Counted from the first letter of the stretch, positions 14,789 through 59,528 are shown. The stretch: 64,000 bases of DNA from Candidatus Gottesmanbacteria bacterium RIFCSPHIGHO2_02_FULL_39_11 (GCA_001779195.1 MFJL01000041.1:16881-80880), one strand, 5' to 3'. The notes: generated from the letters alone by a model not told the origin. Program-made: numbers and translations.

Positions 14789-14869
14789 ATTTGTCATCCT
14801 GAGCTAAAGCGAAGGATCCCGTTGGCTCTACTTAAACCGATCGGGATTCTTCACTTCGTTCAGAATGAC
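14789..14869. repeat. palindromic intergenic element of the TTTGTCATCCTGAG...GAATGAC family (MITE/REP-like)
   Basis: TTTGTCATCCTGAGCTAAAGCGAAGGATCCCG ... CGGGATTCTTCACTTCGTTCAGAATGAC forms an imperfect long hairpin. The core is near-identical to the copy at 56733-56768. Confidence 0.6.
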
Positions 14870-14886
14870 GCATGCGAGTTTAAGTT

Positions 14887-15225
14887 ATGAACCTTCATAT
14901 TGACACTACACACCATAATGGAATTTTTATAAAAGTCTCAGATTCTGAAAAAGAATATTCCTTAAAAAAAGAAACAACGTCATGGGCTTCTCAGATACTT
15001 CTTCCCGCAATTGAGGAGTTGTTAAAAGCTCACTGTTTAACTTTTAAGGATATTTCATCCGTTACAGTTGGAACCGGACCGGGATCATATACGGGAATTA
15101 GAGTCGGAATTGCAGTTGCCCAGACGATTGCCTGGATATTGGATATTCCCTTAAACGGAAAGAAAAATAATACAGTTTCTCCTGTGTATGGAGAGAATGA
15201 TAAGTTTGGAGAGTTAAATGGTTAA
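14887..15225 (+). CDS. tsaB: tRNA threonylcarbamoyladenosine biosynthesis protein TsaB (short form, 112 aa)
   Basis: VGTGPGSYTGIRVGIAVAQ matches the TsaB/YeaZ GPGSFTGxRIG motif. Truncated relative to the roughly 220 aa homologs. Confidence 0.65.
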   Translation: MNLHIDTTHHNGIFIKVSDSEKEYSLKKETTSWASQILLPAIEELLKAHCLTFKDISSVTVGTGPGSYTGIRVGIAVAQTIAWILDIPLNGKKNNTVSPVYGENDKFGELNG

Positions 15226-15237
15226 ATTGTTTTATTG

Positions 15238-16752
15238 TTATATGGTTGGAATATGCGGTCCGATCAGAGAAGAAGATTTTCTTTTAAAAATAGCACTGAC
15301 TCGGTCTTCATACAGCAGTTCCCATCTGTTTTCGTTTACTAATGCCAACATTCTTTTGTAGATAGGTTTATGTGTAGAAATGTAAACTGTATCATAGGGG
15401 GATTTATTAATATCCAGAATGTTCTGTTCCAGATAAAAATTATTTTCAAATGCGCTGTAGTCTTTATTATCTCTCCAGAAGGACATGCGTCCGTCAACTG
15501 AGGGTTTAATCTTGGGATAATTCCATATAAGCCATCCTCCCCAGTCATAAAAAGTATAGAGATTTTTATACGGAACTTTTTTTAAAAATTCAGCCGATGC
15601 AAATGAACAGCTTGTATATCTGCAGTAATTTTCCCAACTTAAATTTCTTATTCCATAGGGAGTTACTAGTTTTAGATAAAGTGAGTAGATAATAATTCCA
15701 GAAAAAACAAGAAAGTAAATGATTTTTATGGTTTTTTGTGAAATGACGGAGATAATATTATCCAGATATTTAATAATGGGAATGGATAATAAAAGAAGAG
15801 TCCATGTATATCTGCGGGCGCTAAATGAGAGGAAAAATATTAAAACAAGGGGTAGGATTTCAGGAAGATACTCTCTGAGTTTTTTATTCTTAAAAAGAAT
15901 AAAAATGGAAACTCCTATATAAAGCCCCCAGGAGAGAAGCCTCCACCAATAGATAGTATAGGCATCAAATGAGGTCCACTCGACGATATATTGAGAAAGA
16001 GGATTTCCGAAGTGGTGAAGGGCTTCTCCGTAGATAGATATTCCGAAGGGATTTATGAGAGTTACAAATACTGAAACTAATAACGCAAGTAAAGGTAATA
16101 AGTAATAAAAAATTTTGTGTTTAATATTGGAAAAATATGAAGATGCTGAAACTAGTTCAGCATGACGAGGCAGTAAATTAATTACCAGATAAAATATAGA
16201 CCAAAGAAAGAAAAGTCCTAGTCCTTGGATAAATCCTCCGTGAAAGTTGACCCAAATAAGGAAAAGAAGCGGGAGGAAAAAAAGATATTTGACACTCCCC
16301 TTTTTAAATTTGCTGAAAATTAAATAGGCACAGCAGGTAAACATCAGAGTGACCAGTTGCGCGCGGAATGAGACTTTATTAAGAAGCTCCATAAAGTAGA
16401 GAGTAAGAGGAAAGAGAAAACTCTTTTGCCACCAGGTAAGGGATGCCGATTTTGATATAAAAAAAAGCGTTCCCACAACCGTTAGTGCTCCCAAGAGGGA
16501 AACTCCTAAAAATCCAAGATCGCGATATGCAAAATATGTCACACTATCTGAAAGCCAGGAGTGGTTTATCCAATGATAAGAATTCATTTCAGAGGAAAAA
16601 ATATTGTCTCTTAATATTTTTCCGTGAGTAAAGAAGTATTCTCCGTACTTTAAGTGCCACCCCAGATCAGAATCTATAGGCTGATAGAGAGAAAAAAGAA
16701 AGACAGAAATGTAGGGGAGAATATTAAGAATAATAGGGAAAAGCCGTTTCAT
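15238..16752 (-). CDS. polytopic integral membrane protein, GT-C-like putative glycosyltransferase
   Basis: 504 aa with more than 10 predicted TM helices. Loop-1 acidic motif DSDLGWHLKYGEYF. Hydrophilic C-terminal domain. Confidence 0.45.
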   Translation of the reverse strand: MKRLFPIILNILPYISVFLFSLYQPIDSDLGWHLKYGEYFFTHGKILRDNIFSSEMNSYHWINHSWLSDSVTYFAYRDLGFLGVSLLGALTVVGTLFFISKSASLTWWQKSFLFPLTLYFMELLNKVSFRAQLVTLMFTCCAYLIFSKFKKGSVKYLFFLPLLFLIWVNFHGGFIQGLGLFFLWSIFYLVINLLPRHAELVSASSYFSNIKHKIFYYLLPLLALLVSVFVTLINPFGISIYGEALHHFGNPLSQYIVEWTSFDAYTIYWWRLLSWGLYIGVSIFILFKNKKLREYLPEILPLVLIFFLSFSARRYTWTLLLLSIPIIKYLDNIISVISQKTIKIIYFLVFSGIIIYSLYLKLVTPYGIRNLSWENYCRYTSCSFASAEFLKKVPYKNLYTFYDWGGWLIWNYPKIKPSVDGRMSFWRDNKDYSAFENNFYLEQNILDINKSPYDTVYISTHKPIYKRMLALVNENRWELLYEDRVSAIFKRKSSSLIGPHIPTI

Positions 16753-16864
16753 GGAAAGAGAGTATACAGGAAAAAATCCTAAAGTCCAAAGTATGTTTTA
16801 TAACTGCCTCTTGACACACGGTTAAAAAAATTCCTATAGTGATATAGATCATTAATAATTTCAT

Positions 16865-16917
16865 TTGCTGGCCGCAACCGGAGGCAATCACCTAAATAAA
16901 GGGATTGCTTTTTTTAT
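16865..16917 (+). ncRNA. conserved box TTGCTGGCCGCAACCGGAGGCAATC plus hairpin and U-tract. Candidate small RNA 3' end or attenuator. Paralogous to 19008-19070.
   Basis: About 25 nt shared with 19015-19040. Followed by the GCAATC...GATTGC stem and TTTTTTT. No upstream plus-strand gene, so it is not an ordinary gene terminator. Confidence 0.3.
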
Positions 16918-17215
16918 AAGTTTTTTGTGATTCATCTGCCCGATGAAGTTTTGTTGTCGACTATTGAATTTATAATGAAAATCTGCCCACTGCCCAATTC
17001 TGGCACTTTAGCCTTTTTTAAAAGGGAGAGTGTCTTTTTTTGTGCAGATCTTGTCGAGCTTGCGAGACATAGAGATGCATACCCTGAAAATTTTTTTAAA
17101 TTGCAAAGCAATTTGGAAAAATTTACACAGTAAATTTTTAAAAAATTTTTAGGGTAAGAAATACTGAGACTCACTTTGTTCGTCAAGTATTTCTAACGAA
17201 AGGAGGTGAAAATTT

Positions 17216-17815
17216 ATGAAAAAAAATATATTAGGAGTTATGTTGGGTACCGGTATGCTTTTTGTTTCTGTTCTTCCTGTATTTGCAGCAACTGACAGTT
17301 TCAACATAGCAACCGGATATCGCAGTACTAATAAAAGTAGGATTTTGAATAAAACCACAGCCGATGTTGATGTATTTAATCATGCACATGTGACAAATAA
17401 CATCACAACCAAAAGTGAGAGTGGTAAGAATGATCAAAATTACAACACGTTAGTTTTAGGAACCGGAATTGTTACAGATCCTGCGAGTTCTTCCACAACT
17501 CTAACCAATGGAGTCAATTCTACAGGAGTTTTGGTTGATCAAACCTCTCCTGAGTGCGGATGTGATTTATCTGCCGGAAATAGTTTAACCGGAGCTAAAT
17601 CTCACAATTATGCCAGTGTGAAAAATATTAAAGACGCGGATGTCACTGTTATAAACAGCGCATACGTTTCAAATACAGTATACACTGCTTCTGACACAGG
17701 ACATAACGACTCAAACGGCAATACAGTTGGCGGCAGTATCTCAACAGGCACAGCAACCTCAAGGACAAATGTGACAAATGATGTAAATACGACAACTGTT
17801 GTTGTAGCTCAATAA
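17216..17815 (+). CDS. secreted Asn/Thr/Gly-rich repeat protein (paralog family A, short member)
   Basis: Signal peptide. Repeat units such as TGHNDSNGNTVGGSISTGTATSRTNVTNDVNTTTVVV. Leader TTCTAACGAAAGGAGGTGAAAAT is identical to the one upstream of 19188. Confidence 0.7.
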   Translation: MKKNILGVMLGTGMLFVSVLPVFAATDSFNIATGYRSTNKSRILNKTTADVDVFNHAHVTNNITTKSESGKNDQNYNTLVLGTGIVTDPASSSTTLTNGVNSTGVLVDQTSPECGCDLSAGNSLTGAKSHNYASVKNIKDADVTVINSAYVSNTVYTASDTGHNDSNGNTVGGSISTGTATSRTNVTNDVNTTTVVVAQ

Positions 17816-17847
17816 TTCGTTTCATCAAGAAAGAAACGGGTTACAAA

Positions 17848-17881
17848 AAGGCGTGAGTATAAAAAACTTACGCCTTTTTTG
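17848..17881 (+). terminator. rho-independent terminator after the 17216 gene
   Basis: AAGGCGTGAGT-ATAAAAA-ACTTACGCCTT stem-loop followed by TTTTTT. Confidence 0.6.
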
Positions 17882-17992
17882 CGGCTAATATGCTCCGTAT
17901 GAATTAATTGATATAGTTTGTTATCTTGACATACATTAATTAGGATTGTAATATCGCTGTCACATTCATGAGTATTAATTAGCGCATTATAT

Positions 17993-18637
17993 ATGGATAA
18001 AAACGCAGCCGAAAATGATTTAAATTCTACTGGTGTTAATATAACCAAACCTGTGCACAAAAGAAGACTCTCTTTATTTTTAAAGGCATATAAAAAATTT
18101 TTAATAGTAATTGTTATAGTAATAATAGGACTATTTCTTATTTCAAAAATTTCAACCCCCAAAAATTCCACCAATTCACCTTCTTCTGTTCGTTCGGTTA
18201 CTACAAGAGTTGATAGAAGCTATGACTTTAGTGCATTAAATAATCAGGGGAAGCCAATTCCGACGACTACTGCGAGTCCCAGCCGGATAAAGCTCACCAT
18301 TACCAATGCTGAAAAAACAAGCCAGGTGCTGGTAGGTGATAAAACATTCAGCGCTAAAAACAATAAATTGTTTTTAATTCTAAATTTGGAACTTAGAAAC
18401 GACAGAGCAACTCCTGCAAATATCATTCCGGGCGATCTTATTCGTATGACATACGGAGGTGATGAGAGCCGCAAATTTGCGCCTGACCTTCATAATAATT
18501 TGGTGCCTGTGGCTGCTATATCAACCAAAATTGATCGGGTGGGTTTTGTAGTACCGGATAATGAAAAGATGTTTAAAATATACATAGGAGAATTGGAAGG
18601 AAAGAAAGATATTGTCACAATAGCATTTGGGTCTTGA
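17993..18637 (+). CDS. hypothetical membrane-anchored protein (N-terminal TM, extracytoplasmic domain)
   Basis: ORF with the TM segment FLIVIVIVIIGLFLI. No family recognised. Confidence 0.4.
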   Translation: MDKNAAENDLNSTGVNITKPVHKRRLSLFLKAYKKFLIVIVIVIIGLFLISKISTPKNSTNSPSSVRSVTTRVDRSYDFSALNNQGKPIPTTTASPSRIKLTITNAEKTSQVLVGDKTFSAKNNKLFLILNLELRNDRATPANIIPGDLIRMTYGGDESRKFAPDLHNNLVPVAAISTKIDRVGFVVPDNEKMFKIYIGELEGKKDIVTIAFGS

Positions 18638-18753
18638 CAATATATTTTAAAATTAGTTATAGTGAAATGAGACTGCCTCGTTTTGTTTATGCGTTAACTT
18701 CTGCCCCCGCATAAATTAATCATATTTTCTGTCCAAATTTATATTTAAAATAT

Positions 18754-18930
18754 AATGGCTGATTACCAGTCATCTATGAATACTCAACTTCTTCTTGATG
18801 AGCTGAAAAAAGCTTTGGCAAATGTACGTCCCTACGGATCTATCGAAATTATTGTACAAAATAATCAAATCACCCAGATAACAGCACGAAATATAAGGAA
18901 GACAACAGGAATTGCAATTGACCAGTTATA
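18754..18930 (+). CDS. small YezD/DUF2292-like protein (58 aa, below the ORF-track cutoff)
   Basis: Translation MADYQSSMNTQLLLDELKKALANVRPYGSIEIIVQNNQITQITARNIRKTTG. The GS.EI.VQ(N/D).....I pattern resembles the YezD family. Confidence 0.4.
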
Positions 18931-19007
18931 GAAAAAACGTTCTTCGTTTTTCGTGATTCGTATTTCGTTAGGACGAAGAACGAACAACGATAAACGAATA
19001 ACGGCAT

Positions 19008-19070
19008 AAAATTTGTTGCTGACCGCAAGCGGAGGCAAGAATCTTTATAAAAAGATTCTTGCCTTTTTTT
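19008..19070 (+). terminator. conserved box TTGCTGACCGCAAGCGGAGGCAAGAATC embedded in a rho-independent terminator
   Basis: GGCAAGAATCTTT-ATAAA-AAGATTCTTGCC followed by TTTTTTT. The 5' box is shared with 16865-16890. Confidence 0.55.
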
Positions 19071-19187
19071 GTGGGAGGAGAATAAAAAAATCATTCTTCG
19101 ATTATAAGAGGACGTAAGAATTTGTATTTCCTCATTAAATAATTCGAAAACAAATTCTAACGAAAGGAGGTGAAAATAATTAAATAT

Positions 19188-20387: not shown

Positions 20388-20479
20388 CCGTTTTCTTTCT
20401 TGGCAGGCCCCGACTATCAAGTCGAGGGCCTCCAAGAAGGAACGAGATTAACAAAAGCTCAAAGCTAAAAGTTTAAAAA

Positions 20480-22846: not shown

Positions 22847-22901
22847 TCTGCTTTTGCCCACTATCTGTCGTTATTAAACTGCCATTTTCATAAGGAGGGT
22901 T

Positions 22902-24179: not shown

Positions 24180-24189
24180 AAAAAAGTCT

Positions 24190-30300: not shown

Positions 30301-30413
30301 TAATTATCCAATTAACCAATTTCTAATTATCCAATTAACCAAAAAAACATTTGTTTAATTTTAAATTGGTTTATTGGGTAATTGGTATTTATTGGATAAT
30401 TGGATAATTATCA
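30301..30413. repeat. complex AT-rich palindrome: two direct TAATTATCCAATTAACCAA units facing inverted TTGGATAATTGGATAATTA units
   Basis: The direct 19-mer occurs at 30301 and 30325. Its reverse complement occurs as 3-4 degenerate copies at 30367-30413. It directly abuts the uxs start. Confidence 0.55.
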
Positions 30414-41416: not shown

Positions 41417-42448
41417 ATGAATAAAAAAATTTTAATCATAGGAGGTGCAGGATTTATAGGATCTAATGCCTCTCACTATTTTTCCAAAAAAGGGTATGAA
41501 GTTACGGTTTTTGATAATTTATATCGGATAGGAACAGATAAAAATTTAAACTGGCTTAAAGAAACTCATCCCCAAATAAAATTTATTAAAGGGGACATCC
41601 GTAAATATGCTGATCTTAAAGATGCTGTCAAAGGGTTTGATGTGGTTATCCATCTGGCTGCTCAAGTTGCGGTAACTACTTCCGTTGTTGATCCCCGAAC
41701 TGATTTTGAAATAAATGCGTTGGGAGCTTTTAATGTTTTAGAAGCCGTTCGGGAAAACGGAGAAAAGCCTTTTGTCATTTTCTCATCGACAAATAAAGTA
41801 TACGGCGGAATGGAAGAAATAAAAATTGTGGAAAAAAACGGACAGTACGCGTATAAGGATTTTCCAGGGGGAATTTCAGAAAAAAGTACTATAGATTTTC
41901 ACTCTCCTTACGGATGTTCAAAAGGATGTGCGGATCAGTACGTTAGAGATTACTTCAGAATCTATGATATTCCGACGGTTGTTTTTCGTCAGTCATGTAT
42001 ATACGGTCCTCGTCAGTTTGGGATAGAAGATCAGGGATGGTTAGCATGGTTTATTATCGCAACCACTCTCTCGAAATTCATTTCCGTTTACGGGGATGGA
42101 AAACAGGTTCGGGATGTTTTATATGTTGATGATTTGGTGCGAGCATATGATTTGGCAATTGAAAATATGAGAAATGTGAAAGGAAAAATATATAATATAG
42201 GAGGAGGACCCGGCAATACCCTTTCTGTCTGGAAGCAGTTCGGAGGAATTCTTGAAAAATTATTTGGAAAAAAACTAAATCCAAAATGGGGACCCTCCCG
42301 GCCGGGAGATCAAAAAGTATATATAAGCGATATCTCAAAAATAAAAAAAGAATTAAATTGGACTCCACAAGTGAAAGTGGAAGAAGGGATAGAAAAACTT
42401 TTCAACTGGGTGCAGGAAAATAAAGAATTGTTTAAAGACTTTATATAA
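41417..42448 (+). CDS. NAD-dependent epimerase/dehydratase (CDP-paratose 2-epimerase-like)
   Basis: ILIIGGAGFIGSN, SSTNKVYGG, YGCSKGCADQYVRDY. Confidence 0.65.
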   Translation: MNKKILIIGGAGFIGSNASHYFSKKGYEVTVFDNLYRIGTDKNLNWLKETHPQIKFIKGDIRKYADLKDAVKGFDVVIHLAAQVAVTTSVVDPRTDFEINALGAFNVLEAVRENGEKPFVIFSSTNKVYGGMEEIKIVEKNGQYAYKDFPGGISEKSTIDFHSPYGCSKGCADQYVRDYFRIYDIPTVVFRQSCIYGPRQFGIEDQGWLAWFIIATTLSKFISVYGDGKQVRDVLYVDDLVRAYDLAIENMRNVKGKIYNIGGGPGNTLSVWKQFGGILEKLFGKKLNPKWGPSRPGDQKVYISDISKIKKELNWTPQVKVEEGIEKLFNWVQENKELFKDFI

Positions 42449-42453
42449 TTCAT

Positions 42454-42513
42454 TTGTCATCCCGGGCTTGACCCGGGATCCATGATAGATTCCCGCCTTC
42501 GCGGGAATGACAA
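42454..42513. repeat. palindromic intergenic element TTTGTCATCCC-[CCCGGG hairpin]-[TTCCCGC hairpin]-GGGAATGACAAA (same family as 14789 and 56733)
   Basis: Outer inverted arms TTTGTCATCCC / GGGAATGACAAA. Two internal GC-rich hairpins. Fills the gap between two epimerase genes. Confidence 0.6.
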
Positions 42514-42525
42514 AAAAACAACAGT

Positions 42526-43647
42526 ATGAAGTATAAAAAAATATTAGTTACCGGAGGCGCAGGATTTATCGGCTCTCATCTAGTTGACGGGCTTATTAAA
42601 AAAGGATATAGAGTTCGTGTCATGGATAATCTGTTTAAGCAAATTCATCCGAGTGGAAAACTTCCCGATTATTTCAACAAAAAAGCGGAATTTTTTAAAG
42701 GGGATGTCACGAAACGTGAAGGCTGGAAAACGGCATTGAAAGAGATTGATGTGGTGTATCATCTGGCATCGGCTGTAGGGGTGGGGCAGAGCATGTATGA
42801 AGTTGAGCATTACGTAAAAGTAAATAGTCTGGGTACTGCATTGTTTTTGGATATTTTAGCAAATGAAAACCATTCTGTACAAAAAATAATTGTAGCCGCT
42901 TCTATGAGTTCTTACGGGGAAGGGACATACCATTTCGAAGGAAAAGGATTATTCCAGCCGCCTCTTCGAAATGAAAAAGATTTAAAAAAAGGAGACTATA
43001 ATGTTTATTATCCGGGCACACGCATTATGGGAGAGCCCCGGGCAACATCTGAGGACGTCAAGCAAAATTCAAACTCCATCTATGCAATCGGGAAGAAAAA
43101 TCAGGAAGAAATGATTCTTGTCTTCGGAAAAGCATATGGCATTCCTTCTGTTGCCATGAGATATTTTAATGTATACGGACCCCGCCAGAGTCTCTCAAAT
43201 CCGTATAACGGTGTCGTTGCCATATTTCAAAGCAGGGTAAAAAATAACAAGCTGCCCATAATTAATGAAGACGGGACGCAGACGCGGGATTTTATTCATG
43301 TAACAGACGTCACAGCGGCAAATATCAAAGCGATGGAAGAAGATAGTGCAAATTACGAAGTTTTTAATGTGGGATCGGGAAATCCGATTTCAATTTCCGA
43401 AGTTGCCCGGATTTTAATACAGTTAAACGGTAAGAAATTTAAATCCGATATTACGGGTAAAATAAGAAAGCTGGATGTCAAACACTGTTTTGCGGATATA
43501 ACAAAAATCAAAAAACTTTTAGGATGGAATCCTACAATCCGTTTTGAAGAAGGACTTAAAGAAGTATTAAAATGGAGTGAGGGCGAGAAGGCCGAAGATA
43601 AATTAGATTTTGCACTTTCGCAGCTTGAAAAACGCGGACTTAGATGA
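42526..43647 (+). CDS. NAD-dependent epimerase/dehydratase family protein (UDP-sugar 4-epimerase-like with an insertion)
   Basis: ILVTGGAGFIGSHLVDGL. YAIGKKNQEEM (YxxxK). Confidence 0.6.
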   Translation: MKYKKILVTGGAGFIGSHLVDGLIKKGYRVRVMDNLFKQIHPSGKLPDYFNKKAEFFKGDVTKREGWKTALKEIDVVYHLASAVGVGQSMYEVEHYVKVNSLGTALFLDILANENHSVQKIIVAASMSSYGEGTYHFEGKGLFQPPLRNEKDLKKGDYNVYYPGTRIMGEPRATSEDVKQNSNSIYAIGKKNQEEMILVFGKAYGIPSVAMRYFNVYGPRQSLSNPYNGVVAIFQSRVKNNKLPIINEDGTQTRDFIHVTDVTAANIKAMEEDSANYEVFNVGSGNPISISEVARILIQLNGKKFKSDITGKIRKLDVKHCFADITKIKKLLGWNPTIRFEEGLKEVLKWSEGEKAEDKLDFALSQLEKRGLR

Positions 43648-44705: not shown

Positions 44706-45911
44706 TTATTTTTTAATCCACTCTTTTTTCAATTTTAAAAAGTTATTTTCTTCAATTGAATTTCTGATTTCTTCCATCACACTCCCAAAAAATGAAAGAT
44801 TGTGAATTGTTGCCAGACGGTATCCCAATAGTTCACGGGACTTAAATAAGTGATGAATATATGAGCGGGTAAAATTACTGCATGTATAGCATCTGCAGCC
44901 CCGGCTTAAAATATTATTATCCAGTTTAAATTCTGACTTAGTTATGTCATATCGATACTTTTTTGAAAGTCCCATTTCTTTTGAAAAAATATACCCAAGC
45001 CGTCCCATACGGGTGGGGATTACGCAGTCCAATGTGTCAATTCCGCGCTGTATGCTTTCAAATATATCTTCGATTTCTCCGATGCCCAAAAAATGAACGG
45101 GTCTTTCAGAGTAATTCAGTATCGGAAGTGTCCAGTCCAGAACTTTAAATACAAATTCGCGGGGCTCTTTTGCATTTGCAACGCTTCCAATTGCGAATCC
45201 TTCAACATCTTTTGATTTGATAAAACGGGCAGACTCCATCCTTAAATCTTCAAATATTGAACCCTGAACAACTCCGTATAAAGCCTGAGAGAGATTTATT
45301 TTATTTTTATTATTTTTGTGCTGCTCTATGCATACCTCAAGCCAGGCATGCGTTCTTTTTAAAGCCTCTTTGGCATAATTGTGTTTTATCGGATAAAACG
45401 TACATTCGTCAAATGACATCATGATGTCAGACCCTAATTCCTGTTGAGCTTCAATTGATTCTTTGGGACCTAAAAATATTTTTTTTCCGTCCCAGGCCGA
45501 GGTAAATTCAATTCCATCTTCCAAAATTTTTACCAGAGTCTTCTCATTGAATTGGGTTTTCTCATTACCCGCTTTGGTTTGCTTTCTCGGTCCATTTTCT
45601 CCGAGTGAAAATGCCTGAAATCCTCCCGAGTCTGTCATCACAGATCCTTCCCAGTTCATAAATTTATGCACGCCTCCTGCATTTTTCACCACATCAATAC
45701 CCGGACGAAACATCATGTGATACGTATTTACAAAAAAGACATCAATTGAGCATGCCTTAATTTCCTCAGGGGTTAGAGACTTGATAGTTGCCGCAGTTCC
45801 GCAGGAAACAAATCCCGGGGTTCTTATTTTCCCATGTGATGTAGTTATGATTCCAGTTCGTGCGTTTGAGTTTTTGTCGCGGTGGTGAATTTTGAAATTG
45901 AATTTGTCCAT
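44706..45911 (-). CDS. tgt: queuine tRNA-ribosyltransferase (tRNA-guanine transglycosylase)
   Basis: Catalytic MTDSGGFQ. Zinc site CRCYTCSNFTRSYIHHL. TIM-barrel length. Confidence 0.9.
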   Translation of the reverse strand: MDKFNFKIHHRDKNSNARTGIITTSHGKIRTPGFVSCGTAATIKSLTPEEIKACSIDVFFVNTYHMMFRPGIDVVKNAGGVHKFMNWEGSVMTDSGGFQAFSLGENGPRKQTKAGNEKTQFNEKTLVKILEDGIEFTSAWDGKKIFLGPKESIEAQQELGSDIMMSFDECTFYPIKHNYAKEALKRTHAWLEVCIEQHKNNKNKINLSQALYGVVQGSIFEDLRMESARFIKSKDVEGFAIGSVANAKEPREFVFKVLDWTLPILNYSERPVHFLGIGEIEDIFESIQRGIDTLDCVIPTRMGRLGYIFSKEMGLSKKYRYDITKSEFKLDNNILSRGCRCYTCSNFTRSYIHHLFKSRELLGYRLATIHNLSFFGSVMEEIRNSIEENNFLKLKKEWIKK

Positions 45912-45946
45912 AACTGCTATGGATTCCCGCTTTGCGGGAATGACAA
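45903..45946. repeat. degenerate copy of the TTTGTC...TTCCCGC-hairpin-GGGAATGACAA element
   Basis: TTTGTCCATAACTGCTATGGATTCCCGCTTTGCGGGAATGACAA. Sits between the divergent tgt and ogt starts. Confidence 0.5.
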
Positions 45947-45951
45947 CACGT

Positions 45952-46293
45952 ATGTTGGAATTTTACATGATCGGGCTTATAATTACTAATATGGGAACTT
46001 TTCAAAAAATCAATGATATAGTTGCCAAAATTCCTCAGGGAAAAGTAGCAACATACGGGCAAATCGCAAAGCTTGCAGGAGTTTCAAGTCCGAAAATTGT
46101 CGGATTTGCACTTCACGTAAACAAAGATCCGATCGCTGTCCCCTGTCACAGAGTAGTAAACCGGTTTGGGCACTTAGCATCAGGATACGCAATGGGAGGA
46201 AAGGACAAACAGAAGAAACGTTTGGAAGATGAAGGCGTTAAAATAGATTCGGATAATAAAGTTGATTTAGATAAATACCTCTGGGTACCATGA
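45952..46293 (+). CDS. ogt: methylated-DNA-protein-cysteine methyltransferase, C-terminal-domain-only form. Start uncertain (45952, 45967 or 45991).
   Basis: GTFQKINDIVAKIPQGKVATYGQIA ... PCHRVV (the PCHR active site). Confidence 0.75.
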   Translation: MLEFYMIGLIITNMGTFQKINDIVAKIPQGKVATYGQIAKLAGVSSPKIVGFALHVNKDPIAVPCHRVVNRFGHLASGYAMGGKDKQKKRLEDEGVKIDSDNKVDLDKYLWVP

Positions 46294-51335: not shown

Positions 51336-52111
51336 AAAAAAATCTAAGCGCAGTTATTATTACGAGAAATGATAGCGATGATTTAGAAGACTGCATAAAA
51401 GAGTTATCCTTCGCCGATGAAATAATTGTTATTGACAATAACTCAACCGATGATACGGCAAAAATAGCCAAATCGTTAAAAGCTATGGTTTACAATGTTG
51501 GAGGACTTGATTTTTCGTATTTGCGAAATATCGGAAAAGAAAAATCGGAAGGGGAGTGGATTTTATATATTGATACGGATGAAAGGATCACAAAAGAGCT
51601 GAAAAATGAAATTGTATCATTCCTTAAAAAACCTGGCGATTATATGGCAGGGCTTTTTATCAGGAAAAATTTCTTTTTCGGAAGTCCCTGGAATCATTCG
51701 GACCGGATGACCAGACTCATGAAAAAAGAAGCCCTTATCGGATGGCACGGGCAGCTTCATGAAACTCCTCATGTAAGGGGCAATGTCTATACATTTAAAA
51801 ATCCGCTCTTACACTATACTCATGATAATTTAACCCAAATGGTTAGTAAGACAAATGAGTGGTCTGAAATTGAAGCACAACTTAGGTATCAGAATAATCA
51901 TCCTCATATCGTCGGGTGGCGCTTAATACGAGTTATGATTACGGCATTCTTTCAATCCTATATTCGGGAGGGAGGATGGAAGTGCAAAACGGTGGGGGTG
52001 GTAGAAAGTATTTATCAATCTTTTAGTATGTTTATTACTTATGCAAAATTATGGGAAAAACAAAATCGCGCGCTGATTGAAGAAAAAGACTATGATAAGC
52101 CGAACTCCTAA
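51332..52111 (+). CDS. GT2 family glycosyltransferase
   Basis: LSAVIITRNDSDDL, VIDNNSTDDT, YIDTDERI. Confidence 0.7.
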   Translation: MKKNLSAVIITRNDSDDLEDCIKELSFADEIIVIDNNSTDDTAKIAKSLKAMVYNVGGLDFSYLRNIGKEKSEGEWILYIDTDERITKELKNEIVSFLKKPGDYMAGLFIRKNFFFGSPWNHSDRMTRLMKKEALIGWHGQLHETPHVRGNVYTFKNPLLHYTHDNLTQMVSKTNEWSEIEAQLRYQNNHPHIVGWRLIRVMITAFFQSYIREGGWKCKTVGVVESIYQSFSMFITYAKLWEKQNRALIEEKDYDKPNS

Positions 52112-53177: not shown

Positions 53178-55389
53178 AAAGATATTTTTGTTTTTGGTGG
53201 GTTTAGGAGGAATATTTTTTTATCCATTTTTTATTTTCGGAAAAATTCCCATTCCCTCAGATGCCTTGGTGGGATTATATTATCCCTTCCGGGATACTCT
53301 AAATACCCGGTACCCGAACGGTTATCCGTATAAAAATCCGCTAATTACTGATCCTGTCCGTCAACAATATGTCTGGAGGGAGCTCTCAGTTGATGCGTTT
53401 AGAAAGGGGAAACTTCCCCTGTGGAATCCCTATTCATTCGCAGGTACTCCGCTTCTTGCCAATTTTCAGTCTGCTTCTTTTTATCCCTTAAATATATTAT
53501 TTTTTATTTTTTCATTTCCTTTTGCCTGGGGAATTCTAGTTTCCCTTCAGCCAACCCTCTCATTGATTTTTATGTATTTTTATCTTCGGGAGTTAAAAAT
53601 TACAAAAGCAGCATCCGTTGTCGGGAGTCTGGCTTTTTCATTTTCAGGCTTTTCCATTTCATGGCTTACGTGGAACACCGTGGGCCATACCGTTCTTTGG
53701 CTTCCCCTTATACTTCTCTCTGGTGAAAAAATTATTAAAAACACTTCCCTGAAATGGTCTCTTGTTCTTCTTTTTTCTCTGTGCTCATCTTTTTTTGCCG
53801 GTCATCTGCAGACGTTTTTCTATATAGGAGTTTTTTCACTGATTTACTTTGTTGCTAAATTAATTAATGGTATTCGTCATCCTGGATTTATTTACCCGGA
53901 AAATCCTTATGACGTACGGAAAAAATTAATAGTCTTTTTTATTTTTGTAATTCTTTTCACTGCCATCACCTCCGTCCAATGGATTCCGACTCTTGGTTTT
54001 ATTTCACAAAGTGCCAGAAATGCAGATCAGGCTAACTGGCAGAAGGAAGGATGGTTTGTGCCTCCTCAAAATCTGTTGCAGTTTTTTGCTCCTGATTTTT
54101 TCGGAAACCCAGCAACCGGTAATTATTACGGAGTCTGGAATTACGGTGAATTTATCGGATATATAGGAATGATTCCACTATTCTTTGCCCTGTATGCTGC
54201 TCTGAAATTAAAAGATAAAAAATCTATTTTCTTTGTATCCATTATTATGGTATCCATTGTTTTAATCACCGATAATCCTGTTTCTGAAATTCCTTACCGG
54301 TTAAATATCCCATATATTGGGACAAGTCAGCCCACACGGCTTATGTCTCTTATTGATTTTTCCCTCGCTGTTCTTGCCTCTTTAGGAGTAGACCAGCTCA
54401 GGAGCAACACAAAGCAGAAAAGATCTGTCTTATTCTCAATTGCAATAATACTAATGCTATTAGGAATTTGGACATTTTCCAGAAATCCGGTTGCCCGGAA
54501 TAATTTATATCTCTCCATTTTCCTGGGGCTTATTATCATTCTTACCACACAGGCATATCGTATACGGCCCTCCAAAATAGTATTGCCCGTATATTTACTG
54601 GTTACCGTTTTTGATCTTTTTCGTTTTGGGTGGAAGTTTACACCATTCACAAGTACCGATCTTTTGTATCCTCAAAGTTCCCTATTAAGTTATTTAGAGG
54701 ATAACTCACACAATTACCGGGTTATGGCAAATGACAGAAGGATTTTGCCTCCCAATGTATCCTCCCATTACAAAATTCAGGATGTTTCAGGATATGATCC
54801 TCTGTATTTACTCTCATACAATAAGTTTGTTTCTTCCTGGAACAGCAACAGCCTGAATTTGAAGCCAAGCGCATTTAACCGGATCGTAACTCCTCAAAAT
54901 TACGAGTCGCCCGTAAGCGATCTTTTAGGCATTAAATATCTTCTCAGTCTTACACCGGTTCAGTCTTTAAAATGGGAGTATGTTATGAGGGACGGGGAGA
55001 CATATCTTTATCAAAATAAAGATGTATTGCCCCGGGCGTATTTGGCACAAACCGTTTTCCAAAAAGAGACGGATCAGGATGTAATGAGAGAAGTTTTAAA
55101 TAATAAAAATTCAGATTCTGCTTTCTCAACCGAAAATATTACACTCGGGTCAAAATCTCTTACACCCAGTGAGTCAGCAGTAATTGAAAATTATGAAGAA
55201 AACGATATTCGTATTAAAGTTATATCAGGTGATACGCGAATGTTGGTATTAACTGATCCCTACTACAAAACGTGGAAAGCTTTCGTAGATGAAAAAGAAA
55301 CACAAATATTCAAAGTAAACTTTTTATTCAGAGGCGTTGTAATTCCATCAGGTGAACATATAATAGAATTTAAAAATTATTTGTTCTAG
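53149..55389 (+). CDS. YfhO-family GT-C membrane protein
   Basis: About 745 aa. N-terminal polytopic domain plus a large C-terminal extracytoplasmic domain, the YfhO architecture. The track start 53095 overlaps the preceding gene, so 53149 ATG is preferred. Confidence 0.55.
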   Translation, partial: KKLSSFFTDRKIFLFLVGLGGIFFYPFFIFGKIPIPSDALVGLYYPFRDTLNTRYPNGYPYKNPLITDPVRQQYVWRELSVDAFRKGKLPLWNPYSFAGTPLLANFQSASFYPLNILFFIFSFPFAWGILVSLQPTLSLIFMYFYLRELKITKAASVVGSLAFSFSGFSISWLTWNTVGHTVLWLPLILLSGEKIIKNTSLKWSLVLLFSLCSSFFAGHLQTFFYIGVFSLIYFVAKLINGIRHPGFIYPENPYDVRKKLIVFFIFVILFTAITSVQWIPTLGFISQSARNADQANWQKEGWFVPPQNLLQFFAPDFFGNPATGNYYGVWNYGEFIGYIGMIPLFFALYAALKLKDKKSIFFVSIIMVSIVLITDNPVSEIPYRLNIPYIGTSQPTRLMSLIDFSLAVLASLGVDQLRSNTKQKRSVLFSIAIILMLLGIWTFSRNPVARNNLYLSIFLGLIIILTTQAYRIRPSKIVLPVYLLVTVFDLFRFGWKFTPFTSTDLLYPQSSLLSYLEDNSHNYRVMANDRRILPPNVSSHYKIQDVSGYDPLYLLSYNKFVSSWNSNSLNLKPSAFNRIVTPQNYESPVSDLLGIKYLLSLTPVQSLKWEYVMRDGETYLYQNKDVLPRAYLAQTVFQKETDQDVMREVLNNKNSDSAFSTENITLGSKSLTPSESAVIENYEENDIRIKVISGDTRMLVLTDPYYKTWKAFVDEKETQIFKVNFLFRGVVIPSGEHIIEFKNYLF

Positions 55390-55423
55390 TTTTTTTGTTA
55401 TCTGTCAAATATTATTTGTTCAT

Positions 55424-56440
55424 ATGGATCTAAGTATCATTATCCCCAACTTTAACGGAAAAAAACTTTTAGAAAATAATCTTCCGAAAGTTTTAGAAGC
55501 AGGAAAAGATTGTGAAATAATTATTGTTGATGATGCATCAACAGATGGAAGCGTAGAATTTCTCAAAAAAGAATTTCCTCAAATAAAAGTTTTACAAACA
55601 TCTTATCATCCTGAACTTGTTTACTCGGAAAATTCGTTAGAATTGTTCCGAGATTCAGGATCTTCTTCAAACAAGGGCTTTTCTGCCTCCGTTAATCTTG
55701 GCGTTAGCCATGCCAAGTCTGACTTTGTTTTTCTCCTAAACAGTGACTGCTATCCTGAAAAAGGGAGTATTGAGAAAGTGATAAAGTTATTTGAAGATCG
55801 CAATTTATTTGCTGTGGGATTTGCACAGAAAAATTTAGAAGATGGAAAAACAGTCATTCGGGGAAGGGCCTTAGGGAAATTTGAAAAAGGATTTTTTGTT
55901 CATTCATACGGAAGTCCTGATAAAACAACCACTCAATGGGTGGGAGGTGGGGCGGGAGTTTTCAAAAAATCACTATGGGATCGTTTAGGAGGAATGGATG
56001 AAATTTATAATCCTTTTTATTGGGAGGATATAGATCTCTCATACCGTGCGTTAAAATCAGGGTATTCCATCCGGTTTGTTCCGGATGCATATGTTGTCCA
56101 CGAGCAAAGTAAAGGAACCATACGCAGCCATTATTCAGATTCCTATATTAAGTCCATTTCTTATAGAAATCAGATCTTATTTGTGTGGCTGAATATATCA
56201 GATCCCTACCTTTTATTAAGTCATTTCTTTTATTATCCCTATGAAGTCATTAAATCCTGGGTTAGGTTAGTGTGGTATGTCGTAAGTCGTAGGAAGAACA
56301 AAATCAGATCTTCTTCAGATCTTTCTTTTATAAAAGCTGATATCGCCTCAGAACTGAAATTCTTTTTGGCACTCGGAAAAAGATTTCAAAGAAAAAAAAT
56401 GTGGAAGAAAAAAGATAAAGAATGTTTTGTGAAGAACTAG
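55424..56440 (+). CDS. GT2 family glycosyltransferase
   Basis: LSIIIPNFNGKKLL, VDDASTDGS, YWEDIDLSYR. Confidence 0.75.
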   Translation: MDLSIIIPNFNGKKLLENNLPKVLEAGKDCEIIIVDDASTDGSVEFLKKEFPQIKVLQTSYHPELVYSENSLELFRDSGSSSNKGFSASVNLGVSHAKSDFVFLLNSDCYPEKGSIEKVIKLFEDRNLFAVGFAQKNLEDGKTVIRGRALGKFEKGFFVHSYGSPDKTTTQWVGGGAGVFKKSLWDRLGGMDEIYNPFYWEDIDLSYRALKSGYSIRFVPDAYVVHEQSKGTIRSHYSDSYIKSISYRNQILFVWLNISDPYLLLSHFFYYPYEVIKSWVRLVWYVVSRRKNKIRSSSDLSFIKADIASELKFFLALGKRFQRKKMWKKKDKECFVKN

Positions 56441-56846
56441 AAGTCATCCCAAAACCTCTTTTGCGAACTCGAGCGGGATTGCTTCGCTACGCTCGCAATG
56501 GCGGGTATTGAGATGAGTTCTAGATCAAATTTATTATCTAAGGAATTTGTACACAACTCAGAGGGGATATCAGAAATAGTATATCCATAGCTGTGGTCAT
56601 TTTCTACGCGAACTTATACCTCTGGAATAAAATTCCACTCTGTCATACTGTTATATCAGTGTTGTTCCCGCGCAGGCCTGCCTGCGCAGACAGGCGGGAA
56701 TCCATCGTTAAATTTTGTTACCCTATTTTATTTTTGTCATCCTGAGGTCTCCCGAAGGATCCCGTCCGATACCAGAAGCCTTTAAAAGAAATAGTTAGGA
56801 AATATAAAATCTCTTGTATACACTAAATATCTGATATACTCAAATT
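56441..56846. repeat. repeat-rich spacer holding at least three palindromic elements of the GTCATCC family. It separates the glycan cluster from the defense island.
   Basis: At 56441: AAGTCATCCC...CTCGAGCGGGATTGCTTCGCTACGCTCGCAATGGCGGG. At 56665-56703: TTCCCGCGCAGGCCTGCCTGCGCAGACAGGCGGGAATCC. At 56733-56768: TTTGTCATCCTGAGGTCTCCCGAAGGATCCCGTCCG. All GC-rich compared with the surrounding sequence. Confidence 0.55.
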
Positions 56847-57284
56847 ATGACTCAGCTTTTCACCACCGGTTATCAAGGGGAAACCATACATGAATTTATT
56901 CAAAAAATCACTACAAAAAATATAGAAGCAATTATTGATATCAGAGAAAATCCCACAAGCAGAAAACCAGGGTTTAGTAAAAACGCGCTTCAGAGACGAC
57001 TTGATTCTGTTGGTATAGATTACTATCATTTTCAGGAATTAGGAACCCCAAAACCCCTTCGTAATCTTTTAGCACATAGTCAAAACTATAATCAGTTTTT
57101 TGAAGAATATAAACAATTTTTACCGGAGTTTCAGGATGCTCTTGATGATATTATCGAGATAGGCAGTAATAAAAGAATTTGTCTATTGTGTTTTGAAAAA
57201 GATCCACATTATTGTCATCGAAAAATTGTCGCGAATCTTATCTCTTTCTACACCGGCAGAGATATTTCAGTCGTTCATATATAA
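56847..57284 (+). CDS. DUF488 (YeaO-like) family protein
   Basis: MTQLFTTGYQGETIHEFIQKI ... IDIRENPTSRKPGFSKNAL ... ICLLCFEKDPHYCHR, characteristic of DUF488. Confidence 0.65.
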   Translation: MTQLFTTGYQGETIHEFIQKITTKNIEAIIDIRENPTSRKPGFSKNALQRRLDSVGIDYYHFQELGTPKPLRNLLAHSQNYNQFFEEYKQFLPEFQDALDDIIEIGSNKRICLLCFEKDPHYCHRKIVANLISFYTGRDISVVHI

Positions 57285-57291
57285 TGTCTCC

Positions 57292-58083
57292 ATGGAATGG
57301 AGAGACGAAGAAATATTAATGCTTGTAAAAGTCTATCCCACACCAAGTAAGAAATATGGTGAAACCGTTTGTTCAGCAGGCATAACCCGTCATGGAAAAT
57401 GGATAAGAGTTTATCCTGTTCCATATCGTGATCTTCCTCCCAGTCAACAGTTTGTTAAATTTCAATGGATTAGGGCTAGGATTACACAAGCTAAAGAAAA
57501 ACTTAGCAGACCGGAAAGTCACAAAATAGATCTTAATAGTATAAAGTTATTAGAAAAAATTCCGGCAGGTGATAAATGGGGTGAGAGAGAAAACTATTTC
57601 TTACCTTATGTCAGTAAATCTTTAGAGGTACTTTTTGAAAATCAAAAAATCCACAACGTATCTCTTGGCGCATTTAAACCTAAGAAAGTAAAAGATTTTA
57701 TTATCGAACCCTCTGAAGATGAATGGGACTTAGGTCAAAAGGGAATACTCAGCCAAACAAGTCTCTTTAACGACAGACGTGCGACTTTAGAAAAAACACC
57801 TTACCGTTTTAGATATAAATTTACCTGTAATGACGATCGCTGTGTGGGACATAACATGATAATTCTTGACTGGGAAGTCTTTGAAAGCTACCGGAGATGG
57901 AAAAGAATTTATAAGGATGGGAAATTGACATTGGAAAAACTTAAGGAAAAATGGTTGACCTACTTTTTTCAAAAAAGAGAATCTTATTTTGTTGTCGGTA
58001 CCGAATCTGAGTTCGGAAAATTCATGATTCTTTCCATAATCAGTCCAAAACGCAAAGAGTCACAACTCAGATTTGGTTTTTAG
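57292..58083 (+). CDS. hypothetical protein (264 aa), no recognisable family. Coupled to the DUF488 gene. A TTG alternative at 57193 would overlap the DUF488 gene by 92 nt.
   Basis: ORF begins 8 nt after the DUF488 stop. Hydrophilic. Cys/His cluster CNDDRCVGHNM. Confidence 0.4.
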   Translation: MEWRDEEILMLVKVYPTPSKKYGETVCSAGITRHGKWIRVYPVPYRDLPPSQQFVKFQWIRARITQAKEKLSRPESHKIDLNSIKLLEKIPAGDKWGERENYFLPYVSKSLEVLFENQKIHNVSLGAFKPKKVKDFIIEPSEDEWDLGQKGILSQTSLFNDRRATLEKTPYRFRYKFTCNDDRCVGHNMIILDWEVFESYRRWKRIYKDGKLTLEKLKEKWLTYFFQKRESYFVVGTESEFGKFMILSIISPKRKESQLRFGF

Positions 58084-58112
58084 TAGGGTAAACAACGACA
58101 TAATAGTATCTG

Positions 58113-58155
58113 AATTTCTTGTGGATAAGTACTATAATCCACGTATAAGGTTTTT
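58113..58155 (+). repeat. direct repeat copy 1 (GAATTTCTTGTGGATAAGTACTATAATCCACGTATA). Copy 2 is at 59616-59658.
   Basis: About 43 nt with about 88% identity between the copies. Contains a TATAAT -10-like hexamer and TGTGGATAA. Confidence 0.6.
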
Positions 58156-58165
58156 TTATTTATGG

Positions 58166-58255
58166 ATGAAAGAGTTGATGAGTGAATTTACAAGTTTAGC
58201 TGAAGAGGCGCGCAAACTAGAAAAGAAAATAGTTGAGGGTTGGAAAAGTATTTAA
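58166..58255 (+). pseudogene. 3'-terminal remnant of a type I RM hsdM gene
   Basis: MKELMSEFTSLAEEARKLEKKIVEGWKSI parallels the C-terminus of the intact HsdM at 61210-61299 (MKELTEEFRTLTKEAHELEKKIEEDWEKII). Confidence 0.6.
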
Positions 58256-58302
58256 TCATGGCAAATTCGCCATAATTAAATATTAATATCTTAGCTAAAA
58301 AT

Positions 58303-59319
58303 ATGAAAAACTCACAGCCTCAATCTCAAATAATTATCTATAAAGCAGAAACTGGCGAGACTAAAATCGACGTGCGTTTTGATGGGGACACGGTCTGGTT
58401 GAGTCAGGATGAAATGGCTCGATTGTTTGACAAAGGCCGTTCAACTATTGCAGAACATATTGCTAAAGTATTTAAGGAAAAAGAACTAGTCGAGGGATCA
58501 GTATGTCGGGAATTCCGACGTACTGGCGCTGATGAAAAAGAATATCAGGTAAAATATTACAATCTCGATGTTATTATCTCCGTTGGTTACCGAGTCAAGT
58601 CACTCCGTGGTACTCAATTTCGTATTTGGGCAACCAAGCGTCTGCGCGAATATATCGTCAAAGGTTTTGTGATGGATGATGAGAGACTGAAAAACCCCGA
58701 TCTGCCGTTTGATTATTTTGAAGAACTCACTCGTCGTATTGCTGATATCCGCACTTCAGAAAAAAGATTTTATAGAAAAATTACAGACATCTATGCTACC
58801 AGTGTCGATTATGACCCGACAGACAAACAGAGTATTCTCTTTTTCAAAACGGTCCAAAACAAAATGCATTATGCAATTACCGGAAGTACTGCGGCGGAGA
58901 TAGTAGCCAGTAGAGTGGATAGTAAAAAACCAAATGTGGGACTGACAAACTTCAGGGGTAATAAACCAACAAAAGAAGAAGTAGTGATCGCCAAAAATTA
59001 TTTGAGTGAACAAGAGCTTCTTGTTTTAAATAATCTTGTCGAGCAATATCTCGTATTTGCGCAAGGACAGGCCATACAAAGAGTGCCAATGTATATGAAA
59101 GACTGGATTGGTAAACTCCATGCATTTTTACAGATTAATAATAAAGATATTTTGAAAGATGCAGGAAGAATCTCTCACGAGTTGGCTACAGAAATAGCCG
59201 AAAGGAATTTTGATGAATACAAGAGAAATGAAGTAAAAAAATTAGATAATAATTTTGATTTGGCTGCTTTACACGCGCTTGAAATTGCAAAGAAAAAGAA
59301 AGGGGAGGATAAAAAATGA
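58303..59319 (+). CDS. RhuM family virulence/defense-island protein
   Basis: IIYKAETGETKIDVRFDGDTVWLSQDEMARLFDKGRSTIAEHI ... YNLDVIISVGYRVKSLRGTQFRIWATKRLREYIVKGF, a strong match to the RhuM family core. Confidence 0.8.
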   Translation: MKNSQPQSQIIIYKAETGETKIDVRFDGDTVWLSQDEMARLFDKGRSTIAEHIAKVFKEKELVEGSVCREFRRTGADEKEYQVKYYNLDVIISVGYRVKSLRGTQFRIWATKRLREYIVKGFVMDDERLKNPDLPFDYFEELTRRIADIRTSEKRFYRKITDIYATSVDYDPTDKQSILFFKTVQNKMHYAITGSTAAEIVASRVDSKKPNVGLTNFRGNKPTKEEVVIAKNYLSEQELLVLNNLVEQYLVFAQGQAIQRVPMYMKDWIGKLHAFLQINNKDILKDAGRISHELATEIAERNFDEYKRNEVKKLDNNFDLAALHALEIAKKKKGEDKK

Positions 59320-59381
59320 CTATGCAATTTTAAAAAATGCAAAATTACTTCATGGAAATAGGCCTGTCAAGAAAACTCTTC

Positions 59382-59528
59382 TGTCATCCTGAAATCGTCT
59401 ACCCTGAGTCTTATCGAAGGGTTTCAGGATCTTCTTTTTGTCATTCTAGCTTGTCCAGAATCTGTGTTGTTTCCATGTCATCCTGAATTTGCTTGTACTG
59501 AGCTTGTCGAACGTATCCAGAATCTGTC
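59382..59528. repeat. cluster of three imperfect palindromic GTCATYCTGA...CCAGAATCTG elements
   Basis: TGTCATCCTGAAA...TTTCAGGATC, then TTTGTCATTCTAGCTTGTCCAGAATCTG, then TGTCATCCTGAATTTG...TCCAGAATCTG. Confidence 0.5.

Follow-up and report, generated by a model that had tools for sequence, protein, structure and literature searches.

Intergenic hairpin units in a Candidatus Gottesmanbacteria contig and their probable relationship to the NTS/SRM recognition sites of Ssn nucleases

Results

Hairpin units at five intergenic sites

In this study we analyzed a 64,000-nt stretch of DNA (the window) of Candidatus Gottesmanbacteria bacterium RIFCSPHIGHO2_02_FULL_39_11, a groundwater metagenome-assembled genome (MAG) of the candidate phyla radiation (CPR), for short hairpin units that lie between its genes and that probably belong to the NTS/SRM family of Ssn nuclease recognition sites. 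The window is located within the 136-kb contig k141_3161789 (ENA ERZ4903137), and its proteins correspond to GenBank entries OGG12763-OGG12801 (locus tag A3D77_). It contains a glycosyltransferase cluster (25-56 kb) and the beginning of a block (56.8-67.8 kb) with a DUF488 gene, a RhuM-like gene, and a type I restriction-modification (R-M) system. Direct reading of five intergenic sites, named E1 to E5, revealed one recurring unit of 23 to 27 nt, which consists of GTC, a palindrome arm starting with AT, a short loop, a return arm ending with AT, and a C.

Three stem types occur in the window. The NTS-type is represented by GTCATTCCCGC-gaag-GCGGGAATC at 42488-42511 (minus strand), by a unit at 45922-45944 (minus strand), and by a damaged copy at 56668-56702, and the CCCGGG-type by the NTSvar-like unit GTCATCCCGGG-cttga-CCCGGGATC at 42456-42480 (plus strand). 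The majority of the copies outside E2 are of the GA-type, whose nine-position stem contains a tandem G.A/A.G mismatch (GTCATCCTGAGC-loop-GCGAAGGATC). Its main copies are GTCATCCTGAGC-taaa-GCGAAGGATC at 14793-14818 (plus strand), GTCATTCTGAAC-gaa-GTGAAGAATC at 14845-14869 (minus strand), and the unit at 56736-56761; others are nested within 59383-59431 or, in the case of 56478-56502 (minus strand), have a mutated head.

E1 (14790-14871, both strands) is an inverted pair of GA-type units between tsaE (stop codon at 14753) and a short tsaB-like gene (start at 14887), with the GTCAT heads facing outward and CCCG/CGGG on the inner side. E2 (42453-42514, both strands) is an inverted pair between two epimerase/dehydratase genes (stop at 42448, start at 42526); its GTCAT heads also point outward, and it is bounded by an 8-bp outer stem, TTTGTCAT/ATGACAAA. 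E3 (45919-45947, minus strand) is the single NTS-type unit GTCATTCCCGC-aaa-GCGGGAATC at 45922-45944, which lies in the 40-nt divergent spacer between tgt (start at 45911) and ogt (probable start at 45952), 10 nt upstream of the tgt start. The public ogt call starts at 45919, and its N-terminus, MDSRFAGMT, is the translated E3 hairpin; translation of ogt more likely begins with the ATG at 45952.

E4a (56443-56502, both strands), immediately 3' of a GT2 stop codon, is a degenerate pair of a plus-strand GTCATCCC...GGGAT head unit and the minus-strand GA-type unit with the mutated head (GCCATTGCGAGC-gta-GCGAAGCAATC, 56478-56502). Its weak profile match (nhmmer, E = 1.1) and a fold no better than that of shuffled sequences suggest that it is a decayed copy. 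E4b (56642-56702, plus strand) comprises a degenerate GTCATACTG-ttatat-CAGTGT unit followed by a headless NTS-type unit with an expanded loop (TTCCCGCGCAGGC...GGCGGGAATC), and E4c (56733-56765, plus strand) is an intact single GA-type element, TTTGTCATCCTGAGG-tctc-CCGAAGGATCCCGT (unit 56736-56761), 82 nt upstream of the DUF488 gene. E5 (59383-59524, plus strand) contains three units between the RhuM-like gene and hsdM: a composite at 59383-59431, in which an 8-bp outer stem (GTCATCCTGAAA/TTTCAGGATC) encloses ACCCTGAG-tcttat-CGAAGGGT, a weak unit at 59440-59462 (GTCATTCTAG-cttgt-CCAGAATC), and a decayed copy of the composite at 59477-59524. Head, tail, and stem are preserved in E1, E2, E3, and E4c, and about half of the copies in the window are degenerate.

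An initial annotation of this DNA had listed the same five sites, all of which exist, and its gene names (tsaE, a short TsaB-like gene, two epimerases, tgt, and ogt) hold as well. The nearly identical cores that it placed at 14789 and 56733 were found as TTTGTCATCCTGAG-6nt-CGAAGGATCCCGT at 14790-14822 and 56733-56765. E1 and E4c have 27 identical specified bases, and their loop-closing pair shows a compensatory change from C-G at 14793 to G-C at 56736. The internal hairpins TTCCCGC-N4-GCGGGAA (chance expectation 0.00) and CCCGGG-N5-CCCGGG were likewise confirmed, at 42490-42507 and 42462-42478, respectively. Several details had to be revised. Two sites had starts shifted by one base, and at both 14789 and 42454 two units in inverted orientation form a pair. 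The hairpin reported at 45903 is real and a single unit, but the 'TTTGTC' taken for its left arm represents codons 2 and 3 of tgt. Copies are present in the ranges 56441-56770 and 59382-59528, but several of them (at 56443-56702 and 59440-59524) are degenerate. The largest concentrations had been described as flanking the defense island: the 56.4-kb cluster does lie at the left border of the DUF488/RhuM/R-M block, but the 59.4-kb cluster lies inside it, and no hairpin cluster is present at the right border.

Enrichment, profile matches, and folding of the units

Under a strict definition (GTCAT, at least seven stem pairs with tandem G.A allowed, then ATC), the window contains 8 units, compared to 0.91 ± 0.92 (maximum 4) in 300 dinucleotide shuffles, and GTC-AT...AT-C is kept by all eight. 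A looser definition was not discriminating (12 units versus 6.0 in shuffles). We then searched the 64-kb window using nhmmer with profiles made solely from units in loci of other organisms. Five units at four sites were detected with E values from 5.5e-5 to 8.4e-11: 14790-14822 (E = 2.7e-9) and 14841-14869 (minus strand, E = 6.4e-7) in E1, the minus-strand unit of E2 (42485-42514, E = 8.4e-11), E3 (45919-45947, minus strand, E = 1.2e-6), and E4c (56733-56765, E = 5.5e-5). The NTS profile gave a match of E = 0.017 to the 3' half of E4b (56691-56705), and in E5 the heads alone were recognized (E of about 0.2). No further significant copy was found in the window, so that the initially annotated set is complete at this level. 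All significant copies are intergenic, in a window of which ~7% is not covered by long open reading frames (ORFs), and the GC content of the elements is 42-57%, compared to 37% for the window.

Folded as single-stranded DNA (ssDNA), E1 reached -15.4 kcal/mol (z = -3.4 versus shuffles), E2 -19.5 kcal/mol (z = -5.0) as a three-way junction closed by TTTGTCAT/ATGACAAA, and E3 a z value of -4.1. In DNA folds, z was -1.9 for E4b and -2.5 for the first unit of E5, the remainder of which folded no better than shuffles. Neither an isolated GA unit nor the copies at 56443-56502 and 59436-59530 exceeded shuffles. For the isolated GA unit this is probably due in part to the fact that nearest-neighbor energies give no credit to G.A pairs, and for the two other copies it is attributable to decay.

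A perfect GTC-hairpin-C, GTCATGCTGAA-cta-TTTCAGCATC, was also present at 16142-16166 (minus strand) inside an ORF of 504 amino acids (15238-16752). About one such match is expected by chance, and the family profiles do not recognize it.

Relationship to the NTS/SRM hairpins and Ssn nucleases

A full-text literature search with GTCATTCCCGC led to the Francisella small RNA FtrB, discussed below, and to the description of the Ssn nucleases (Chenal et al. 2025, Nat Commun 16:2388; PMC11893778). According to that study, the NTS of Neisseria is CGTCATTCCCGCGMAVGCGGGAATCYRG and contains the classical dRS3 repeat, a variant (NTSvar) is CGTCATACTCGGGN5CCCGAGTATC, and Ssn-related motifs (SRMs) follow the degenerate string HGTCWYN(0-2)YYVSBRHN(0-5)WNVSBRGN(0-2)RNCYNB. 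SsnA is a single-domain GIY-YIG protein of 94 amino acids that binds the hairpin solely as ssDNA and cuts a few bases upstream (5') of GTC; it is inactive on double-stranded DNA, on RNA, and on the reverse strand. Cleavage is governed by the three bases before the palindrome and binding by the C after it. SRMs flank 71% of ssn genes, and the authors remark that NTS-ssnA-NTS resembles an insertion sequence (PMC11893778).

The SRM string matched the window twice (0.085 expected), at 42455-42483 (plus strand) and 42485-42512 (minus strand), both in E2. The E3 unit (45922-45944) misses the string solely because its 3-nt loop is one base too short. The determinants of SsnA, GTC directly 5' and C directly 3' of the palindrome, are present in 8 of the 8 strict units, and the folds of E1, E2, and E3 (z = -3.4 to -5.0), together with the covarying stems described below, agree with hairpin formation in ssDNA. 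Taken together, these results support the assignment of the window elements to the NTS/SRM hairpin family as predicted ssDNA recognition sites of Ssn proteins, to which we give a probability of roughly 0.7. The initial annotation had seen a dispersed MITE/REP-like family, which is right in kind: the intergenic hairpins are multicopy, and the two pairs, E1 and E2, are insertions. Its refuting condition, similarity restricted to this window, clearly does not hold, as such units are present in hundreds of unrelated contigs. The actual family, NTS/SRM, had not been recognized.

The GA-type variant and its association with ssn genes

Among collected distinct units, the SRM string matched 148 of 212 NTS-type units but none of 307 GA-type units, although the latter retain GTC at the head and C at the tail. 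GA-type units are widespread. In a collection of viral contigs, 113 stretches matched GTCATCCTGAG-N5-8-CGAAGGATC, and a scan with one genome per species gave at least 119 stretches matching the longer pattern TTGTCATCCTGAG-N5-7-CGAAGGATCCC. Carriers among the genome matches listed were Patescibacteria (Gottesman-, Peri-, Komeili-, Magasanikii-, and Saccharibacteria, Parcubacteria) as well as Acidobacteriota, Verrucomicrobiota, Gemmatimonadota, Proteobacteria, Chloroflexota, Bacteroidota, and Firmicutes. Searches with the GA-type consensus strings gave nothing relevant in open-access full text (the supplementary tables of the Ssn paper being outside the search), and GTCATCCTGAG retrieved primers only.

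The sequence logo across phyla has the consensus core GAGC-GAA-GCGA, which contains GCGAAGC. The oligonucleotide d(GCGAAGC) reportedly forms an extra-stable DNA mini-hairpin (Hirao and colleagues). It is found in the family consensus, whereas the copies in the window have other loops (TAAA, TCTC, or GAA closed by A-C/G-T). We analyzed covariation in 82 GA-type stems using a regular expression that does not require pairing. Position 3 was T-A in 55, C-G in 16, G-C in 6, and non-Watson-Crick in 5 stems, corresponding to 77 of 82 Watson-Crick pairs of three types. G.T pairs were rare in the stems (2 of 82), and for this reason the GA-type stem fits a DNA hairpin better than an RNA hairpin.

Starting from two GIY-YIG ORFs adjoining NTS-type hairpins, an iterative search across all fetched loci (L numbers) yielded seven Ssn-like GIY-YIG ORFs, all assigned to PF01541. 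NTS-type units flank those in L045, L105, and L006, and GA-type units flank those in L246 (Patescibacteria), L283 (Verrucomicrobiia), L263 (Myxococcales), and L330. All seven have invariant Y7, Y18, and E65 residues with the same spacing as the catalytic Y6, Y17, and E64 of SsnA. A database search with the L246 protein gave 1607 homologues, the named ones mainly from CPR lineages. Two of these were examined in their contigs (31% and 40% GC; L375 and L385 sets), and both are bracketed by GA-type units. In total, GA-type units thus lie beside ssn at six independent loci (L246, L283, L263, L330, L375 set, L385 set) from several phyla. From this genomic association we conclude that GA-type units are putative SRMs of a second specificity class.

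No NCBIfam model exists for the Ssn-like proteins, and the structures found in the PDB were limited to distant UPF0213 entries. When small ORFs beside hairpins in 219 viral loci were clustered without prior selection, the clusters consisted of translated hairpins and phage genes; Ssn occurred in 2-3 loci, a low number that is expected, because a genome can have hundreds of hairpins and few ssn genes.

Additional observations were made on the collected contigs. Homologues of the L246 type (best 120 of 1607; loci L375-L394) were very often located on contigs under 2 kb, which suggests that metagenome assemblies break at repeat-flanked ssn genes. In L314, a Candidatus Magasanikiibacteriota MAG, NTS-type and GA-type pairs occur together within 2.2 kb (2709-4924), as in the window, suggesting several hairpin specificities per genome. 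Translated hairpins (VILSAAKDL, RSFAALRMT, DSRLRGND, SFPRKRES) make clusters of spurious ORFs in unrelated contigs.

Inverted pairs without a gene and evidence for their insertion

In the L375 cassette, the order is tatGTCATTCTGAAC...GTGAAGAATCCCG, 15 nt, ssn, 4 nt, CGGGATTCTTCGGCttcGCCTCAGAATGACagg, and in E1 it is tttGTCATCCTGAGC...GCGAAGGATCCCG, 20 nt, CGGGATTCTTCACttcGTTCAGAATGACgca. The ends of E1 are those of the L375 cassette, including the inner CCCG/CGGG, and E1 lacks the gene. By sequence, the heads-outward pairs of 60-80 nt thus look like an SRM-ssn-SRM cassette minus its gene. Among neighboring units in the 119 genome loci listed and the window, 56 were arranged heads outward and 7 heads inward, with pair spacers of typically 7-105 nt, and near-identical pairs of 75-90 nt occur in other CPR MAGs, including another Gottesmanbacteria MAG.

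The E2 junction was compared in five relatives with the gene order epimerase/epimerase/GT2 (62-71% protein identity). It is hairpin-free in L362, L363, L365, and L366, with spacers of 0, 0, 11, and 63 nt (0 meaning overlapping stop and start codons; the 63-nt spacer is AT-rich), and L364 carries a different inverted pair at this position. The junction orthologous to E1 (tsaE/tsaB-like) is empty in L396 (63% identical; 10-nt spacer) and contains in L395 (77% identical) a single degenerate unit where the window has the right arm of E1. Because relatives have empty orthologous junctions, we regard the E1 and E2 pairs as insertions; that of E1 is older than the split from the closer relative L395. 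The initial annotation had proposed a test for target-site duplications, and none are visible at E1, E2, L364, or the CPR pairs. The inverted termini TTGTCAT/ATGACAA are present, and the T-rich 5' flank and A-rich 3' flank belong to the inverted motif.

Search for the partner nuclease

Within the 82 kb of contig read (the window and ~9 kb on each side), neither an ssn gene nor a remnant of one was detected, and a six-frame hidden Markov model search that included short fragments gave a best E value of 0.37. In the window itself, no GIY-YIG sequence was detected by regular expression or by jackhmmer. Among the best 120 of the 1607 homologues of the L246 Patescibacteria Ssn, none was labeled as belonging to this MAG.

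Other features of the window

The R-M region contains an AAA_14/DUF4143 ATPase gene (61390-62862) between hsdM and hsdS. It also contains a 42-nt direct repeat, 90% identical, with TTGTGnATAAG...TATAAT upstream of the RhuM-like gene (58106-58147) and of hsdM (59607-59648), which on its sequence looks like a duplicated promoter block. A 35-nt repeat (17179-17213 and 19143-19177, 86% identical) ending with AGGAGGTGAAAAT directly precedes two ORF starts and seems to serve as their common leader and ribosome-binding region. Finally, an operator-like inverted repeat of TATCCAATTA-like words (30305-30346/30388-30421) is located in the spacer upstream of a gene starting at 30400.

Discussion

The genome analyzed here carries NTS-type units and, more often, the GA-type variant as predicted ssDNA hairpin sites. 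When DNA becomes single-stranded, during uptake or replication, a cognate Ssn protein would nick it beside each unit, and an inverted pair would offer one cleavable unit per strand with the cut sites at its outer borders. The 60-80 nt pairs may be gene-less derivatives of SRM-ssn-SRM that arrived by insertion and spread in trans by an Ssn protein encoded elsewhere, and the degenerate copies at 56.4 and 59.4 kb may be decaying insertions. On this view, inverted GA-type pairs would move as non-autonomous elements, with a distinct Ssn GIY-YIG clade acting in trans by nicking ssDNA at the outer arm borders. This mobile-element proposal is tentative and clearly less probable than the family assignment.

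Several points weigh against the Ssn-based explanation as a whole. Because GA-type units fall outside the published SRM string (0/307), their link to Ssn is purely one of genomic association. No ssn gene was detected in the 82 kb read, and the best-scoring homologues of the L246 protein include none labeled as this MAG. To our knowledge, no transposition chemistry is known for GIY-YIG enzymes, which makes the spreading mechanism a conjecture. The empty-site comparisons span relatives with 62-77% protein identity rather than a population, contigs of the same species being all 100% identical and hence uninformative on polymorphism, and the pairs show no target-site duplication.

The failure to find ssn in the 82 kb read, together with the coexistence of three stem types, the degeneracy of roughly half of the copies, and the one decayed unit that L395 keeps at the E1 site, could also mean that the hairpins are inert relics of past invasions or horizontal transfer, whose cognate nuclease is gone and whose copies are decaying. 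However, E1, E2, E3, and E4c are intact in a genome of 37% GC, E1 and E4c share their 27 specified bases, and ssn was searched in only ~8% of an assumed 1-Mb genome. We therefore consider the relic explanation unlikely for the elements as a whole and possible for the degenerate copies. A role at the RNA level, as terminators, mRNA-stabilizing hairpins, or small RNAs, would be in line with the position of most units on the coding strand between codirectional genes, where they are probably transcribed, with the location of E3 in the tgt 5' leader, and with a match of the region 42436-42521 to FtrB (Francisella sRNA B, Rfam RF02748). The latter contains an NTS-type hairpin, its probe contains GTCATTCCCGCGTAGGCGGGAATC, and E2 aligns over its full model. 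Yet the score of 36.4 bits is far below the gathering score of 66, the Rfam scan of the window gave nothing at the gathering threshold and only this sub-threshold hit in the E-value scan, and, judged from the probe sequence, the similarity is probably due to shared hairpins rather than to a shared RNA gene. Moreover, the terminators or insulators considered in the initial annotation find no support: T-runs are missing 3' of all intergenic units, where CCCGT, CAT, or A-runs occur, and a terminator scan called none of these sites. The scarcity of G.T pairs in the stems fits DNA pairing better, the conserved unpaired GTC and C are determinants of a DNA-binding enzyme that binds no RNA, and relatives do without the elements at the junctions orthologous to E1 and E2. 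An RNA-level role is thus improbable.

Even less probable, in our view, is that the units are REP (repetitive extragenic palindrome) or REPIN elements spread by a RAYT, a Y1 transposase of the IS200/IS605 family, as in E. coli and Pseudomonas. Being short, intergenic, and multicopy, with a variable palindrome behind a conserved 5' head, a predominance of REPIN-like inverted doublets, and the behavior of insertions, the window elements do resemble them, but their head is GTCAT instead of GTAG, no Y1_Tnp gene is among the called genes of the 82 kb, and the gene recurrently adjoining the hairpins encodes a GIY-YIG protein instead of a Y1 transposase. The sole Y1_Tnp gene met has its own unrelated inverted repeats. 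This gene (918-1712 of L390; 264 amino acids, PF01797) lies between GGGGGCTCCGCCCCGGGGTCAGACCTCGGGGTAAC and its reverse complement, and the resulting RAYT/REP-like element is inserted beside an ssn cassette on a CPR-like contig and has no counterpart in L385, which matches in other respects.

The Ssn/SRM system is a recent discovery, published in 2025. New in the present analysis are NTS/SRM elements in CPR genomes, a widespread class of GA-type hairpins that the published string misses and that appears to be paired with its own distinct Ssn clade, and two orthologous junctions indicating that gene-less pairs arrive by insertion, which supports the published speculation on a mobile cassette. 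Small genomes and a presumed dependence on DNA uptake characterize CPR bacteria, and DNA uptake is also the setting of Ssn action in Neisseria. If the proposed mechanism is true, the pairs would constitute a class of hairpin-guided GIY-YIG mobile elements, parallel to REPIN/RAYT but with a different chemistry, and such elements would move between phyla as distant as CPR bacteria, Acidobacteriota, and Firmicutes. The Ssn clade associated with GA-type hairpins also adds to the candidate site-specific ssDNA nucleases, enzymes that are attractive as tools. From a practical point of view, translated hairpins give spurious ORFs and wrong starts, as in the case of ogt, and the repeats may break metagenome assemblies.

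Compared to known systems, the window elements share with REP/BIME/REPIN sequences the short extragenic palindromes, the conserved 5' head, the inverted doublets, and a putative single-copy gene with such repeats on both sides, and they differ in the head (GTAG versus GTCAT) and in the associated enzyme (HUH/Y1 transposase versus GIY-YIG nuclease). Miniature inverted-repeat transposable elements (MITEs) such as the Correia element of Neisseria are likewise small and non-coding, with terminal inverted repeats, insertion polymorphism between relatives, and ends common to a longer gene-bearing element; in the present case, target-site duplications are lacking at E1, E2, and L364, and the gene-bearing relative encodes no known transposase. 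With respect to the NTS/SRM-Ssn system, which includes the Neisseria dRS3 repeat ATTCCC-N8-GGGAAT, the differences are the CPR host, the GA-type stem of most window copies (CCTGAGC/GCGAAGG, tandem G.A mismatch) outside the published string, the gene-less inverted pair as the dispersed form, and the lack of a partner nuclease in the contig region read. In common with it, the window units have the GTC head, the palindrome starting with AT, and the C tail, they are intergenic, multicopy, and directional, and their hairpin types flank small GIY-YIG genes elsewhere.

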